Shown: in pieces, positions 973-57,109 of the stretch
How the letters are laid out: each line of letters opens with the position of its first letter
Numbering within the stretch: position 1 is the stretch's first letter
DNA from: Waterburya sp.
Lineage (GTDB): Bacteria; Cyanobacteriota; Cyanobacteriia; Cyanobacteriales; Xenococcaceae
DNA length: 64,000 nucleotides
NCBI GenBank assembly: GCA_965217895.1
Contig: CBDCJV010000002.1
Coordinates: 992,001 to 1,056,000 of the forward strand
Direction: 5' to 3'
The notes under the pieces: generated by a model
What the model was told of the DNA's origin: nothing
Databases searched by the model: none
What the model saw: only the letters and a program-made list of their open reading frames with translations
Program-made: the position numbers and the translations under genes

Positions 973-1500
973 ATGAAAAAACTAACTACTGTATTATTAA
1001 CTAGCTTTTTGGTATTCGGTACAGCAGCCTGTTCTAATGTTGACAAAACCAGTGCCAATGCACCCAACAAGCAAACAGGAGTGAATACTAATGCTCCTAC
1101 TAAACCTGAAGCACAGAAAGATTAAAGAGACGCTCAACAGCGGAGTGGAATAAGCTGGGGAAACCCCAGCATTTCCTCCGCTCAAAGCCAAATTTGCCGT
1201 AAACAGCTTGACGAAGATATCCAAGCGCGAGAACAACGTAACGACTTTTTCAACAACGGCAGTGCAAAAAATAGAGCCGATGGCGATATCGTTAGTTAGG
1301 TAAGCGACACATTAGAAGCTAATCTTCCTAATAGCGAGCTTAATGTTAACGCTCAAAACGGAATTGTTACCGTTGCAGGAACTGTTCCTACTCAAAAACA
1401 GTTTGCCAGAATTAAATCTTTAGCCCAACAGGTCAAAGGTGTTCGTAGCGTTGATGTAAAAGCAAACATTGCCAGCGCAGGTTCTAATAGTAAAGGTTAA
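973..1500 (+). pseudogene. BON-domain lipoprotein pseudogene
   Basis: ATG at 973 with a lipoprotein signal (MKKLTTVLLTSFLVFGTAAC), then DIQAREQRN and the BON-like ELNVNAQNGIVTVAGTVPT...VKGVRSV. In-frame stops at 1123 (TAA) and 1297 (TAG), and a 48-nt insertion at 1138-1185. Confidence 0.8.
1138..1185 (+). mobile_element. 48-nt hairpin insertion element, copy 1
   Basis: CA-GCGGAG-TGGAATAA-GCTGGGG-AAA-CCCCAGC-ATTTC-CTCCGC-T-CAA inserted at TCAA^AG. Removing it restores DAQ-SQI. Confidence 0.75.
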
Positions 1501-1566
1501 ATCCTGCTTGAAAATTTTCTGATTCCCTCTTCTTACTGTTATAGCAATACGAAGCTGTGTTAGGAC

Positions 1567-1597
1567 ACTCCCTGCGGTGGGTACACCTTGGCTACTT
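1567..1597 (+). repeat. 31-nt dispersed repeat (second copy at 25612-25642)
   Basis: ACTCCCTGCGGTGGGTACACCTTGGCTACTT is 29/31 identical to the 25612 copy. Confidence 0.85.
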
Positions 1598-1620
1598 ACG
1601 AGCAATTAAATTTTCTGTCC

Positions 1621-1658
1621 TGTCTTGGTATGCGTACATGCGGCTAAAGCCTTTGTCT
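1621..1658 (-). repeat. 38-nt dispersed repeat (second copy at 35674-35711, + strand)
   Basis: AGACAAAGGCTTTAGCCGCATGTACGCATACCAAGACA versus AGACAAAGGCGTGAGCCGCATATACGTCCTCCAAGACA, 31/38 identical. Confidence 0.7.
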
Positions 1659-1949
1659 TGCGCCTGTGGTTTCCCAGGCGTTTATGTCGCCCGTCAAACT
1701 GTCGAACCCTTTAGGGGGTCGCACCGCTAACCGATTAATGTACTGCGATATAAAGAAGACGAAGTTTTTATTTTTTATCTGTAGAATTTGTCGCGGTAAA
1801 AACTTGTCGCACAGATTGAAAACCGTATTTTCAATAGTTTTTCAAATAGCGAAAGTTAGTTTATAAATAAATAATCAGTCTAAAGATAGAAGATATTTGA
1901 GAGCAAAAATAATATTTTTAGATATGTAACTAAGATTTGGAGAATATGT

Positions 1950-13818: not shown

Positions 13819-15303
13819 TCAGTTAAGCAAAATTTCTCCATAAACATCAACATTATCCATAAAAGAGTTATCAGTATCAGTAGCAAAATTATTACTAAAT
13901 TTAGGTAATGATTTTAAAGAAGCAACTACAGCAATGCGATCGCTATTTGCCTGTTGTGCTAAAGCTGGAGTAATCATAAAAATAGCACCGCCTTTTCCTT
14001 GACCTGGATTTATCCCGTTGCCAGCGATCGCCTTATTATTTATAAAGGTAGTCCGAGATAAAATTAATTGACCAGAACGAATAAAAATAGCACCACCTAA
14101 ACCAGCACCACTACCGCTATAACCAACTCCACCATTGCTACCACCAAAGAGACTTTTTCCTCCTTGACCTGAGTTGCCAGCTATTTTTCCAAAACCGCCG
14201 TTACCGCCACTTCCTCCTCCTGCGCCAAAACCGCCGTTTCCACCGTTGCCACCATCACCGCCATTTCCTTCTGAGATAAAACTGCCTCCGTTACCGCCAT
14301 TGCCTGCATTGCCAAAACCGCCAAAACCTCCCCCTCCACCAAAGATTACTGTCCCGATGCCACCTCGATCATCAATTAAGCCAAAACTACCAAATATTCC
14401 TGTTCCACCGTTACCGCCATCACCGCCATTACCGCCGTTTCCGCCTTCGCTACCACCGTTACCGCCATTGCCACCATTACCCGCGTTACCAAAGCCGCCA
14501 AAGCCGCCACCACCACCAAAAACAATACTGCCAATGCCATTTACTCCAATCCCGTTAACTCCTGCTACAGCACCTCGATTAATGTCATATCTATTACTGT
14601 TGCTATCTATTTCAATCTCTCTGGCTTTTAAATCAATATTGGCTAAATTGTTAAGGCTAATACCATTAATTTCGGATGTAGCTCCACGATTAACCTTAAA
14701 ATGGTGGTTATTTTCAATAATGCGACTGTTTACAGGGTATTGCTTGAGTTGTTGCTCAATTAATCTTTTTCCATCTCCCCCAATTGCCCGATTACCATTG
14801 AATGTCACCTCACTAAGAATTACCATTCCCTTATCGATAAATAATCCGCCTCCCATTCCTGCGGATGCACCAGCACCATTATGACCAGCTTCTCCTTGAG
14901 CTAGACCATTACTAATAGTCAGCTTGCTGATACTTATTTCTCCTTGTTCGATATAAAAAATTCGATGAAGATTGTTACCGTTAATCACATCGTTACCATC
15001 ACCGATGATTGCTAAATTGCCGCGAATTTTGGGTAAAGGAGAATTTAGAATAATCTTGCCGCTAACTTGACTTAAATCGATCGCATTATCATCGGGATAC
15101 TGATTGGCTAAAGCGATCGCCGATCTCAACGAACCCGAACCTCGATCGTCAGTAGTAGTAACCATAATTCGAGTTGGAATTAAGTCTATCTCTACCTCTG
15201 CTGCTATTGCTGGAGTAATACCTAATCCAATCCAGAGCAAAATTGATAACCAAAATAGTCTTAATATATTTACCGAACTCAATAAATTAGTTACAATATT
15301 CAT
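13819..15303 (-). CDS. Secreted glycine-rich protein
   Basis: Signal peptide, VTTTDDRGSGSLRSAI motif, GNGG repeats and GGAIF motifs. Confidence 0.8.
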   Translation of the reverse strand: MNIVTNLLSSVNILRLFWLSILLWIGLGITPAIAAEVEIDLIPTRIMVTTTDDRGSGSLRSAIALANQYPDDNAIDLSQVSGKIILNSPLPKIRGNLAIIGDGNDVINGNNLHRIFYIEQGEISISKLTISNGLAQGEAGHNGAGASAGMGGGLFIDKGMVILSEVTFNGNRAIGGDGKRLIEQQLKQYPVNSRIIENNHHFKVNRGATSEINGISLNNLANIDLKAREIEIDSNSNRYDINRGAVAGVNGIGVNGIGSIVFGGGGGFGGFGNAGNGGNGGNGGSEGGNGGNGGDGGNGGTGIFGSFGLIDDRGGIGTVIFGGGGGFGGFGNAGNGGNGGSFISEGNGGDGGNGGNGGFGAGGGSGGNGGFGKIAGNSGQGGKSLFGGSNGGVGYSGSGAGLGGAIFIRSGQLILSRTTFINNKAIAGNGINPGQGKGGAIFMITPALAQQANSDRIAVVASLKSLPKFSNNFATDTDNSFMDNVDVYGEILLN

Positions 15304-25611: not shown

Positions 25612-25642
25612 ACTCCCTGCGGGGGGTACCCCTTGGCTACTT
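25612..25642 (+). repeat. 31-nt dispersed repeat, copy 2
   Basis: ACTCCCTGCGGGGGGTACCCCTTGGCTACTT. Confidence 0.85.
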
Positions 25643-35711: not shown

Positions 35712-37349
35712 ACTTCGCCCTCTCTCTACCTTCAATCCTCTTTTAAAAACTAGAGCAAGCGAGCCTCAAGCCTATTAATCGGTAAATACCTCATGTTATG
35801 AAACTCAAATATACCTATGTTTAATATACCTAAAACATAAGTATATTTGCTTAATTTCATAGTCGAAAATCGTTTAGTTTTCTGCTTTGCTTTATAGCTA
35901 TCTCATACCTTATATAGATTAAGAACCAAAATTTTATTTATATATCAACTATAAAAACAGCTTAAAAGATAGTTTTAATTTAAGGAATAAAAAATGAGGC
36001 TCAAAAAGCTAAATAACCAACTGCTAAATCTAGATAAGGGACTGCTTAGTCTTAATAATCGTCACTTTTTGCTCTTTGATGCAATTATTTTTTCTTTAAC
36101 TCCATTATTAGGAATAAGCCTAAGACTAGATAATTTAATGCGACTGCATGAGTATAGAAGTGGTTTAATCATTGCAACTTTCATTTTTTCTTTAATTAAG
36201 CTGATAGTCTTTACACTTGGTAGTTTTTACAAACGATATTGGAAGTATGCCAGTATCGATGAGCTAACTCAGATGACAGCTTTAACTGCATCTGCGGTCA
36301 TAATAGAGATTATTATCCTCAGTCTTTTAGAATATGTATTTGGTTTATCCAACTCTATAGCCAGGGTCAAATTTTTATGCTTAATATGGGTCAACCAGTT
36401 AAGATTGTTGACTTGGCTAAAGACTTAATTCGTCTTTCAGGATATGAAGTGGGCAAAGATATTGAAATTATCTTTACAGGATTGAGACCAGGAGAAAAAT
36501 TATTTGAAGAATTGCTGGTTGAGGGAGAAGAATATGAATCTACTAACCACGAAAAAGTGTTAGTAGTTAAAAATGCTAGTCGCATTATTCCCGAAAATCT
36601 TGAGATCAGCATTGAGGCAATGTGTAACGCAGCCAAAAACAACGATATTAATCTGATTATCTTTTTGTTGGATCGATTAGTAGTTGGCTATAACTCCAAG
36701 TATCAACGAATCAACGTCGATCTCGCTCAGGAAAACCTAGCCAAAATAATTAGTGAAGCCTGTAATCTTAATTCACTTAACCTGAGTTTACAGACAAAGT
36801 TAAACCCTCGTCTAAGTTTACCCAGTTCTGGCTCTTCAAGCCGTTTGACCGAAAAAGAGCTAGAACGAGGTCTAAAACGAGCATTAGAAAATGAAGAATT
36901 TTGTCTTTGCTACCAACCAGTTATCAATTTGCAAACTGGTGAGGTGAAAGAGTTTGAGGCTTTGTTGCGCTGGAATCATCCTCAATTAGGATTGATTCCA
37001 CCCCAAAAATTTATTGCCATAGCAGCAGAATATGGAATTTTAATGCCGATACAACACTGGATTATCGAAACGGTTTGTCAAAAGTTAAAGCAATGGCAGC
37101 AAGATAGTAGTCTAAATCCCCAAGTTGCCATTAGTATTAATCTGCCCAATCAACAGCTATTCCAAGCAAGCTTGGTTAAAAATTTACAGTACAACCTGGA
37201 AAAATATTGGGTCGATTCTAAATTGATTGCGTTGGAAATATCAGAACACTTACTAAGAGAAAGTCCCCAAATTGCGATCGCAATTTTGCCTCAGCTAAAG
37301 CATTTAGGTATTCAACTGCAAATTGATAACTTTGGTCGCGTAGCTTCTA

Positions 37350-38439
37350 AGTGGTCAAGCAAAATTAATTACACTGGTAAATAGAAAGTCAAAACGAGAG
37401 TGAAAAGAGTGCATTTAGAGGGAAAACTGAGTTCAGAAACAGTCAAAATATTATGGCGATTGTATCGTCAACACCGCGATTAGAGATGCTTTCTGACCGA
37501 AAGCCTCTCTCGCGGCCAAAGTAAAAACTATCAAGTAAGAGCTAGAGCGCACTGTATATTGCTGATCGACTCAAGATACGAGCTGGAAGAACTAATTGAA
37601 ATCTTTGGAGTTAGCCGAAAAACAATATACAACTGGAAAAATAACTGGTCAAAGTACAAATTAGTAGGTTTGTATAATCGGCTTGGAAGAGGAAGAAAAG
37701 AAATTTTTAGTACGCCACAAAAACAGCAGATTAAAAAGTGGGTTACACAAAATCCGAAAAACCTTAAGCAGGTAATTGAAAAAATCAGAGAAGAATGGGG
37801 AATAGTTGCTAGCAAAGACACAGTTAAAAGAATTCTAAAATGTCTGGCAATGAAATGGAAGAGAGTGAGAAAAGTAACCAATGGGCAACCAGACAAAAAG
37901 ATGTACGAAGTCAAAAAGCAAATTCTCAAAGCTTTACAAAGGTTATCACAGCAGGGAAGTATAGATTTAAGCTATTTGGACGAAACAGGATTCTGTCTCA
38001 CTCCTTATGTTCCCTACGCTTGGCAAGAAACAAAACAGCAAGTGGGAATAGATAGCAAACAAAGTAAACGACTAAATATTCTAGGTCTTTTAAATAGAGA
38101 AAACGAGTTATATTCTTACATTAGTGAAGTAGTAATTAAATTTTTGGATTTATATGTTCAACAAATCAACAAATCCACGGTAGTAGTTTTAGACAATGCC
38201 CCCATTCATCGCTCACTAGCATTTCGGAAAAAGATAGCACAATGGCGTAAGCAGAAAATGGAAATCTTTTGGTTGCCAACCTATTCTCCTCAACTGAACT
38301 TAATAGAAATTTTGTGGCGATTTATGAAATATGAATGGATCGAAGCTCAAGCTTACACAAGCTGGAAGCATTTAACTCATCACGTCGAACATATTTTGCG
38401 AGATTTCGGCGATCGCTATGTAATTAATTTTATTGACCA
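37350..38439 (+). mobile_element. Defective IS630-family insertion sequence
   Basis: TA then left end AGTGGTCAAGCAAAATTAATTACA; degenerate right end TGTAATTAATTTTATTGACCA. Transposase from GTG 37400 with YLDETG, VLDNAPIH and LPTYSPQLNLIE. Confidence 0.9.
37472..37519 (+). mobile_element. 48-nt hairpin insertion element, copy 2
   Basis: CA-CCGCGA-TTAGAGAT-GCTTTC-TGACC-GAAAGC-CTCTC-TCGCGG-C-CAA at TCAA^AG. It introduces a TAG; removal restores LYRQ-SKNYQVRARAHCILL. Confidence 0.8.
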
Positions 38440-55855: not shown

Positions 55856-57109
55856 ATGGCAAACACGGAACATTTGGCATTAATCAAAGAAGATGTATCA
55901 GTATGGAATAACTGGTATAAGAAAAATAAAAAGGTAGTTCCGGACTTATCTAATGCCAATCTTAGTAATATTAACTTGAGCGGTATCAACCTTCACAAGG
56001 CAGATTTAAGATCTGCCAATCTTAGTAATACAGATCTGAGTAAGGCTCAACTAGACAATGCTAACTTGGAAGGAGCAAATCTTTTAAAAGCAAATTTACA
56101 AGATGCTAATTTAAAAGGGGCAAGTCTTGACTTTGTAATTTTTTCTCAAGCTAAAATAAATTCTAAAACGATAATTGCCGATAAAAACCGTTGTGTTTAC
56201 AATATTATCAACAATACAGCAGAGAATAAAAACTTTACAGGTGCTGATTTAAGCAATTCTAATTTATTTCGTGCTGATTTAAACAATGCCGATCTTAGCA
56301 ATGCCAAATTAGTTAACGCTAATTTAAATAGTGCAAATCTTAGTAATGCTTATCTTTATCGAGCAGATTTGACTAAAGCCAATTTGCAAAATGCAGACTT
56401 AAAAAATGCTTATTTAAGTCAAGCCAATTTAACTAATGCCAATCTAGCTAAAGCATCATGTAATGGCACATATTTAAAAGATGCAGAGCTAAAGTTTGCT
56501 AATTTAAAGACAACCAAACTTAGTCACAAAACTATGATCGATTCCAAATGGTACTCAGTTTGGGAAATAGTGAATCGGGGTGCAGTTGGCAAGAATTTGA
56601 GCGGTATGGATTTTAGTCAGGCAAATCTGCAAGGAGTCAACTTCGAGAAAGCTAATTTAAGCAACGCTAAGTTAACTGAGGCGATTTTAAGTCATAGCAA
56701 CTTAACCGATGCTAATCTGACTAATACCGATCTTACAGGGGCAGATATTCGTAACGTTGACCTAGATAAGACTAATCTGCAAAAGACAAAATCAAAGTCA
56801 GCAGTTGGTAGTCATGATAATCATTTACCTGCTACTAAAAGTTTCGATCAGTCTAATGTAATGATTAAGGAAAAACCTATAGCTGAAACCAGAACTCTAA
56901 ATCGGTCTACAGCTACGTCTAAGACAACTGAACAAGTTTTAACTAAAAACAATCAGAAACAAAGCAAAAATAGAAGCATCATCAGTATATTGTCATTAGG
57001 AATTATTGTTACTTTTGGGGCTGCCAGCTACTTATTTTTACAGCAAAGCCCCAATTTTTCTGGTCAATCTTGGCAACAAAAGCTAGAACAATTAATTCCA
57101 GCAAAATAA
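55856..57109 (+). CDS. Pentapeptide-repeat protein with C-terminal TM anchor
   Basis: A(N/D)LxxA repeats in three blocks and a hydrophobic C-terminal helix. Confidence 0.92.
   Translation: MANTEHLALIKEDVSVWNNWYKKNKKVVPDLSNANLSNINLSGINLHKADLRSANLSNTDLSKAQLDNANLEGANLLKANLQDANLKGASLDFVIFSQAKINSKTIIADKNRCVYNIINNTAENKNFTGADLSNSNLFRADLNNADLSNAKLVNANLNSANLSNAYLYRADLTKANLQNADLKNAYLSQANLTNANLAKASCNGTYLKDAELKFANLKTTKLSHKTMIDSKWYSVWEIVNRGAVGKNLSGMDFSQANLQGVNFEKANLSNAKLTEAILSHSNLTDANLTNTDLTGADIRNVDLDKTNLQKTKSKSAVGSHDNHLPATKSFDQSNVMIKEKPIAETRTLNRSTATSKTTEQVLTKNNQKQSKNRSIISILSLGIIVTFGAASYLFLQQSPNFSGQSWQQKLEQLIPAK

Follow-up and report, generated by a model that had tools for sequence, protein, structure and literature searches.

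Two 48-nt sequences in the window, by which we mean the whole 64-kb stretch of DNA analysed here, are members of one gene-less, non-autonomous hairpin family. Its copies are inserted precisely after NYCAA without target duplication, and it appears to choose its landing sites partly by pairing with its own nt 2-3, a guide role that we infer. The family is new and has an unusually clear base-pairing target code; we found no description of it in the literature, most subscription papers and supplements lying outside the scope of that search, and an earlier mention is possible. Our preferred reading, to which we give a probability of roughly 0.45, is that the hairpin may be moved by an HUH/Y1-like one-strand peel-and-paste reaction. 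The features in the window are as follows.

973..1500, + strand: host of copy 1, a BON-domain pseudogene (PF04972, E 8e-12)
1133..1137, + strand: target pentamer of copy 1, CTCAA; -5 C can pair with element nt 3 (G) and -4 T with nt 2 (A), and the cut presumably falls after 1137
1138..1185, + strand: element copy 1; A2-T45 class, nt 3 = G; 70.1 bits, copy in the model seed
1139..1140, + strand: nt 2-3 of copy 1, putative guide bases; pair with own nt 45-44 or with target -4/-5
1181..1185, + strand: 3' end of copy 1, NTCAA (nt 44-48); element-derived, no target duplication; putative right cleavage site
37348..38431, + strand: host of copy 2, an IS630-type element (DDE_3 and HTH)
37467..37471, + strand: target pentamer of copy 2, GTCAA; -5 G is complementary to nt 3 (C)
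37472..37519, + strand: element copy 2; nt 3 = C, rare A2/C45 end; 60.9 bits, copy in the model seed

An earlier note on this DNA had proposed coordinates, ends and an outer and inner stem for the two copies, and these are confirmed in both: each is 48 nt long, starts with CA, ends with YCAA and is preceded by TCAA, nt 3-8 pair with nt 39-44, and an inner stem runs from nt 17 to nt 33. The copies have 23 of 48 bases in common. Their folds have z scores of -5.6 and -6.1 (none of 200 shuffles as stable), the range over either strand being -5.6 to -6.6, and a search of window positions 1000-1900 against Rfam gave no match at E up to 1. The complete hairpin consists of pairs 2-8/39-45, 11-14/34-37 and 17-23/27-33 with T9, A15-W16 and C38 unpaired, so that the structure claimed earlier stands but had missed the 11-14/34-37 stem, the A2-T45 pair and the unpaired bases. 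In an alignment of 71 distinct sequences, non-redundant picks from the loci available, 95% of cells are paired and 16 of 18 pairs show compensatory changes, the structure having been derived from the same sequences. The covariation score is 0.807 (0.205 when shuffled, at most 0.163 when slid), values that are inflated because the sequences are related. Near-invariant positions are C1, T9, A13, A15, G17, C18, G32, C33, T35, C38 and C46-A47-A48, some of them required by the search pattern. Across the family an outer stem may be combined with different inner hairpins, and the inner loop is also found inverted.

Further copies exist. A length-free descriptor, in which only the ends and outer stem are fixed and 36-69 nt are allowed, gives 49 matches in the 5.29-Mb genome to which the window belongs (hereafter the own genome), 35 of them exactly 48 nt long; two order-5 Markov genomes gave 1 and 5 matches, none at 48 nt. 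As this length spike is absent from the controls, the 48-mers are not due to chance. The genome scan that the earlier note had suggested, carried out with a fuller descriptor, yields 43 copies (25 sequences) at 23 independent sites, many copies having multiplied passively inside larger repeats; in the window a model search finds these two and no others. In all DNA fetched there are 146 independent sites and 202 distinct sequences, almost all from Xenococcaceae-type cyanobacteria. The earlier view of a non-autonomous family with conserved structure and diverse sequence is supported. Matches in four records with non-cyanobacterial titles (L044, L105, L111 and L119), in L143 and in L041 (one of two viral contigs) fail in stem pairing and were dropped as chance; the pairing filter removed 14 rows, several of which are decayed true copies.

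The strict pattern occurs in 34 of 39 genomes of the genus and in 2 of 401 of the phylum, both of the same genus, and the model search finds matches in 20 of 22 genomes of the family and 13 of 141 of the order, some of those outside the family having other ends or lying inside a larger repeat. Among the best 80 of 102 titled records most are Xenococcaceae, Pleurocapsa, Hyella, Waterburya and Xenococcus, with a few Spirulina and Prochloraceae bins.

The 48-mers have company. Sister elements with the same hairpin core and other ends and targets lie in the own genome at C2:521639, 669327, 3865080, 3850710, 2170690, 1664592, 2683583 and 3748244, including TCTAG-bounded and approximately 51-nt CCCT-bounded types and one inside a repeat ending in AAGACC, and others occur in families f8 and f21 (L312, L322, L323). 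Versions of 63, 66 and 153 nt (C2:5104749, 2682470, 4501384, 700982 and 1290452) are 48-mers with extra short elements inside, their lengths being multiples of three. Intergenic stacks of several hundred bases (L411-L412 in G045, and L418) consist almost wholly of nested GC-rich mini-hairpins. In the window itself, a cluster of other short dispersed repeats directly follows the BON gene (1540-1740), parts of it having matches at as many as some 34 genomic places, while the stretch 1567-1597 is found again at 25612-25642 (94%); these are probably further tiny insertion families, nested in one another. The window's main direct repeats stem from a glycine-rich repeat protein without Pfam match (13819-15303, - strand) and a pentapeptide-repeat protein (55856-57109, + strand).

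The target is NYCAA^W. NYCAA precedes the element at 143 of 146 sites, a count biased by the search patterns, into which CAA at -3 to -1 was partly built, and at 20 of 23 sites in a pattern-free test in the own genome; the base at +1 is A or T at 135 of 146 sites as against a background of 65%. The fixed TCAA^AG target proposed earlier must therefore be replaced, N and Y following element nt 3 and nt 2 respectively, and the AG is a coincidence, seen at 2 of 23 own-genome sites (both window copies) and 10 of 146 overall. Complementarity of target -5 to element nt 3 was found at 56 of 95 sites (24.4 when shuffled) and again in metagenome-only sites fetched afterwards (47 of 66; 20.9 when shuffled); in the final set, de-duplicated separately, it stands at 97 of 146 (39.8 expected; 0 of 5000 shuffles). 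Target -4 is complementary to nt 2 at 116 of 146 sites (98.9 expected), and positions -6 to -8 show no pairing signal with the element at the same 146 sites. That -4 would shift with nt 2 had been predicted before sites of the G2-C45 type were counted. Among 61 family genomes there are 26 matches without A2, every one of them G2-C45, and their 14 independent targets have at -4 C 10 times, G 3 times, A once and T never, whereas A2 elements have T at 115 and C at 21 of 146 sites (Fisher p 1e-5, overstated, as are the other target p values, because related subtypes do not give wholly independent sites).

The two ends of the element behave differently. Of the cases in which they disagree at -5/44, 52 have the element's base retained on the right and 1 shows the reverse, an asymmetry that fits one-strand transfer with a fixed cut after CAA and no staggered heteroduplex. 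The downstream TCAA is constant where the upstream word reads ACAA, CCAA or GCAA and is thus the element's own; with a variable upstream tetramer this rules out a target-site duplication. The A2/C45 end of copy 2 occurs at 2 of 146 sites, including copy 2, and may be a later mutation.

We propose that a trans-acting enzyme would bind the folded strand by its shape and cut after CAA at both ends, HUH/Y1-like, leaving a 5'-phosphotyrosine on C1. The donor site would be resealed and the element closed into a dumbbell, joining of nt 48 to nt 1 being predicted to close the stem with a second loop, CAA|C. At integration the target NYCAA would pair with nt 2-3, so displacing element nt 44-48, and be joined to C1, whereupon replication would fix the insert; on paper, the left junction N-Y-CAA|C-R-N' would rebuild the same mini-hairpin from target bases. 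Through dumbbell closure and target displacement one hairpin could do duty for the left end and the right. We presume the active strand and the chemistry of transfer, and favour the scheme on the logic of IS608 and the precedent of a possibly mobile PATE (a palindromic element of the kind discussed below). The computed circular fold of the 48-mer keeps the stem. Contigs from two runs of one sample, which cannot show absence, contain neither a joint that skips the 48-mer nor a circle or excised form.

The same two-base complementarity and the 52:1 asymmetry would also be explained by a tyrosine-recombinase-like exchange of the folded opposite strand (N|TTGRN), in the manner of an integron integrase on attC, with a short homology check 3' of the cut and resolution by replication. 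The base of an attC hairpin is formed by RYYYAAC and GTTRRRY, with the crossover at G|TT; the AA|C junction of the 48-mer resembles it, and the extrahelical bases lie on one arm. We keep this opposite-strand route, unlikely as we judge it to be, because C is tolerated opposite A2 and A3, as bottom-strand wobble would allow, T never faces G2, and stem mismatches are more often A.C (33) than G.T (18). However, G3.T exceeds C3.A, which favours the top strand (p 0.012). Nt 33-48 contain no GTT that could pair with AAC at the hairpin base, and the A/T preference after the cut differs from the C of integrons, so that an attC site or integron cassette in the strict sense is rejected. The own genome has no skew by which replichores could be defined, and the strands look mixed in three other genomes (G032, G045 and G050).

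No known enzyme class accompanies the element. The own genome lacks a canonical TnpA and contains only genes of RAYT type, accompanied by GTAG REPs; its PF01797 match is a frameshifted RAYT, and an intact RAYT frame of 187 aa lies at C2:3520774-3521217. G050, with 62 strict copies, mostly IS-borne, has no PF01797 match, and G442, with 28 such matches, has no element. Y1 TnpA is rejected as mobiliser on this distribution and for want of shared ends; RAYTs are rejected too, those checked carrying unrelated GTAG-type REPs. The element model has no match at 36 Y1, RT, IS110 and TnpB loci (including 29 TnpA out of 311 PF01797 matches, 1 RAYT, 1 TnpB and 3 RT) and nothing better than E 0.67 at 13 RAYT loci. 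The own genome also encodes one TnpB, eight RT matches and two divergent IS110-like genes. These last (C2:2845696-2846925, + strand, and C2:3922316-3923641, - strand) have weak PF01548/PF02371 matches and are preceded by the same upstream sequence and by a non-coding leader of about 250 nt that may be a bridge-RNA-like element. As mobilisers they are rejected: the IS110-like query is absent from five genomes with 26-77 element copies each (G032, G036, G044, G444, G453) and present in two with none (G442, G443). The co-occurrence with candidate transposases that the earlier note had hoped to use is thus lacking for Y1 and IS110-like enzymes alike. IS91 Y2 was found in 0 of 5 genomes, in a search without a responding control, and an Ssn/GIY-YIG protein of about 100 aa was not found in the own genome, whose lone GIY-YIG match lies in a 632-aa frame, presumably UvrC to judge by its size. 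Nor do the surroundings point to an enzyme: no neighbour gene is enriched at the 146 sites (at most 5), genes between paired copies are of no common type, and no autonomous parent with the same ends was found up to 4 kb in the own genome. Nine copies lie near tnpA, tnpB or RT genes, and the four inspected are insertions inside coding sequence.

The host genes attest to insertion. At copy 2, IS630 homologues in three relatives (G041, G050 and G046) lack exactly the 48 nt at the DNA level, their empty sites reading GCCAA, and a paralogue 68% identical in the own genome has a 16-residue gap at the insert. The empty sites inferred in the earlier note are to that extent real; for the BON gene the evidence comes from two paralogues 40-43% identical, in which the gap is imprecise (15 and 12 residues), an orthologous empty site not having been found in 30 relatives. 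Elsewhere in the own genome three repeats have empty counterparts, and a porin-like gene at C2:202067 has 16 extra residues relative to its paralogues. The earlier note had also supposed that the insert can add 16 residues to a protein; this is so for copies elsewhere, but not for the window copies. Copy 1 brings no stop into its host frame but lies in a pseudogene with two in-frame stops outside the insert (1123-1125 and 1297-1299), the N-terminus of which looks lipoprotein-like by eye, and copy 2 brings a TAG (37481-37483) into the IS630 frame. Of the 92 scorable sites, 26 are within long frames, 18 copies being in sense and 8 in antisense orientation; the frame stays open in 24 of them, including 7 of the 8 antisense. 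The length of 48 nt is probably favoured because reading frames stay open, and the element remodels proteins in 16-residue steps and can mislead annotation.

Some spread is passive. All copies of the IS630 in the own genome, five full-length and one 3'-truncated, bear the insert, and these IS-borne elements are passive amplification. The six are 99.9-100% identical despite the internal TAG in the transposase, the sole relative being 68% identical, and the copy in the window truncates an EAL-domain gene (36377-37384). The 48-mer of copy 1 recurs identically at other sites (L173, L215, G038, G039), and within the own genome three pairs of identical 48-mers lie at unrelated sites. In G050 (L390, L391 and L402; L315 compared with L388) IS variants that have clearly diverged carry an identical or nearly identical element at the homologous site, which suggests gene conversion or repeated hot-spot insertion. 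Separately, an IS remnant of 1.4-1.5 kb, presumably ISAs1-like by its motifs, is present at C2:191883-193355 and in six more copies, all seven similar and full of mini-insertions and frameshifts.

An RNA route of the kind proposed for SDRs, in which a hairpin in a transcript would be cut out or circularised and then reverse-spliced or captured, a host RT making the copy, seems rather improbable to us. In its favour, the structure would fold equally well as RNA, the own genome has its eight RT matches, and removal at the RNA level would explain how stop-bearing IS630 copies still multiplied. However, in-gene copies occur in both orientations, Rfam holds no match, wobbles are few and the invariant stem pairs Watson-Crick, and no element lies at the three RT loci. 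As an observation apart, the own genome contains a 549-aa frame (C2:1232465-1234111, - strand) with a weak RT match (E 4e-13) that differs from the group II-type RT frames of 516-603 aa and is possibly, by eye, a defence-type RT.

We give similarly little weight to a route without a dedicated transposase, in which a type IA topoisomerase, relaxase, ligase or template switching releases and captures the hairpin and spread is largely by gene conversion, transformation and IS carriage. It would accommodate the failure of all candidate transposases to co-distribute or link, the fact that most identical copies are IS-borne, and the shared elements in diverged IS variants of G050. Yet a cut at one fixed place, a preference for A/T at +1, the sharpness of the two-base rule and the near restriction to one family suggest a lineage-specific factor, and the identical 48-mers at unrelated sites also speak against it.

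That the 48-mers are not mobile, being ancestral regulatory hairpins or chance, is hardly credible: the 66 of 92 scorable sites outside long open frames would suit it, but the empty sites refute it, and the length spike and gene-breaking insertions oppose it. The earlier note had allowed for the 48 nt being ancestral in orthologues and for there being no further copies; neither was the case. A ribosomal bypassing element (T4 gene 60/byps) is rejected on the occurrence in both orientations, in all frames and mostly at non-coding sites.

Returning to the one-strand peel-and-paste reading, we raise more tentatively the possibility of a minimal self-guided ssDNA transposon, a 48-nt dumbbell in which one hairpin is both ends and the target is set in part by the element's own variable stem bases. 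Its enzyme would belong to none of the recognised Y1, RAYT, IS91 and IS110 classes, and possibly to a class that moves other tiny nested cyanobacterial hairpins. How elements of under 50 nt move has been a question since the Nostoc SDRs, and the family supplies an immediately testable rule that specifies the cut (CAA|C), the circular intermediate to be expected and a pairing code of two bases, with which a synthetic-oligonucleotide pull-down or extract assay could find the enzyme. If new, that enzyme would be a small, partly reprogrammable and scarless ssDNA insertion activity.

On the features tested the element is not a REP, MITE, attC or IS110 derivative. It shares with REP/REPIN-RAYT systems short bulged hairpins, non-autonomy and in-frame gene insertions (PMC3116915 and PMC6006769), but lacks a GT[AG]G foot on the 5' side of the stem, does not form doublets and does not flank RAYT genes, its foot reading YCAA-C rather than GTAG/GTGG (or CGTC). 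A classical MITE is rejected on the variable upstream tetramer and constant downstream TCAA, and an IS110/IS1111-derived mini element on the lack of recombinase co-occurrence and of model matches at IS110 loci. Ssn nucleases with NTS/SRM hairpins likewise read an ssDNA hairpin together with flanking bases (PMC11893778).

IS608, as described in PMC5934647 and PMC6006769, has its right-end TCAA inside the element and its target outside on the left, makes no duplication and goes through a circular form; guide bases lying 5' of the foot of its hairpin recognise the target. The 48-mer resembles IS608/ISDra2 in its TCAA end, in inserting without duplication on the 3' side of a short target, in its imperfect hairpin and in target pairing at the hairpin foot. 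However, it has a single hairpin where they have two, cleavage words that are alike on left and right, and no linked TnpA, and shows two pairing bases where the four-base guide of IS608 reads the cleavage site.

PMC3119063 describes 52-bp terminal-only PATEs in Haloquadratum, core deletions of HqIRS46 and ISHwa23, and says that a 52-bp single-palindrome PATE may be mobile. The 48-mer resembles these in its length of about 50 nt, single palindrome, lack of target duplication and of coding capacity, and strain-specific sites. It has no proper terminal inverted repeat, its palindrome lies near the ends (hairpin nt 2-45), and insertion 3' of a 4-5 nt target read by pairing holds statistically, for two bases. 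PATE ends, however, match a parent IS605 element, whereas the ends of the 48-mer match no tnpA- or tnpB-carrying element (29 TnpA, 1 RAYT and 1 TnpB loci; up to 4 kb in the own genome), its sequence has freely covaried, and its target choice tracks two variable stem bases. It thus works like an IS200/IS605 end or a PATE and fails on shared ends with a parent.

SDR1-8 of the Nostocaceae (Elhai et al. 2008), known to us through citing descriptions (PMC5861425, PMC4390886 and PMC2884548), are likewise tiny structured cyanobacterial insertions with a precise site, nesting and an enzyme that is not known. They are given as 'some 20 bp' in PMC2884548, and according to PMC5861425 the original scan found no SDR-like repeat outside Nostocaceae. 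Compared by description rather than consensus, the 48-mer is about twice as long (48 nt against roughly 20-27 nt), lies outside Nostocaceae and targets NYCAA, not HIP1 as SDR5 does, an SDR5-type insertion being rejected on the target counts given above. Notwithstanding these differences, the closest kinds are the terminal-only PATEs and the SDRs of Nostoc.
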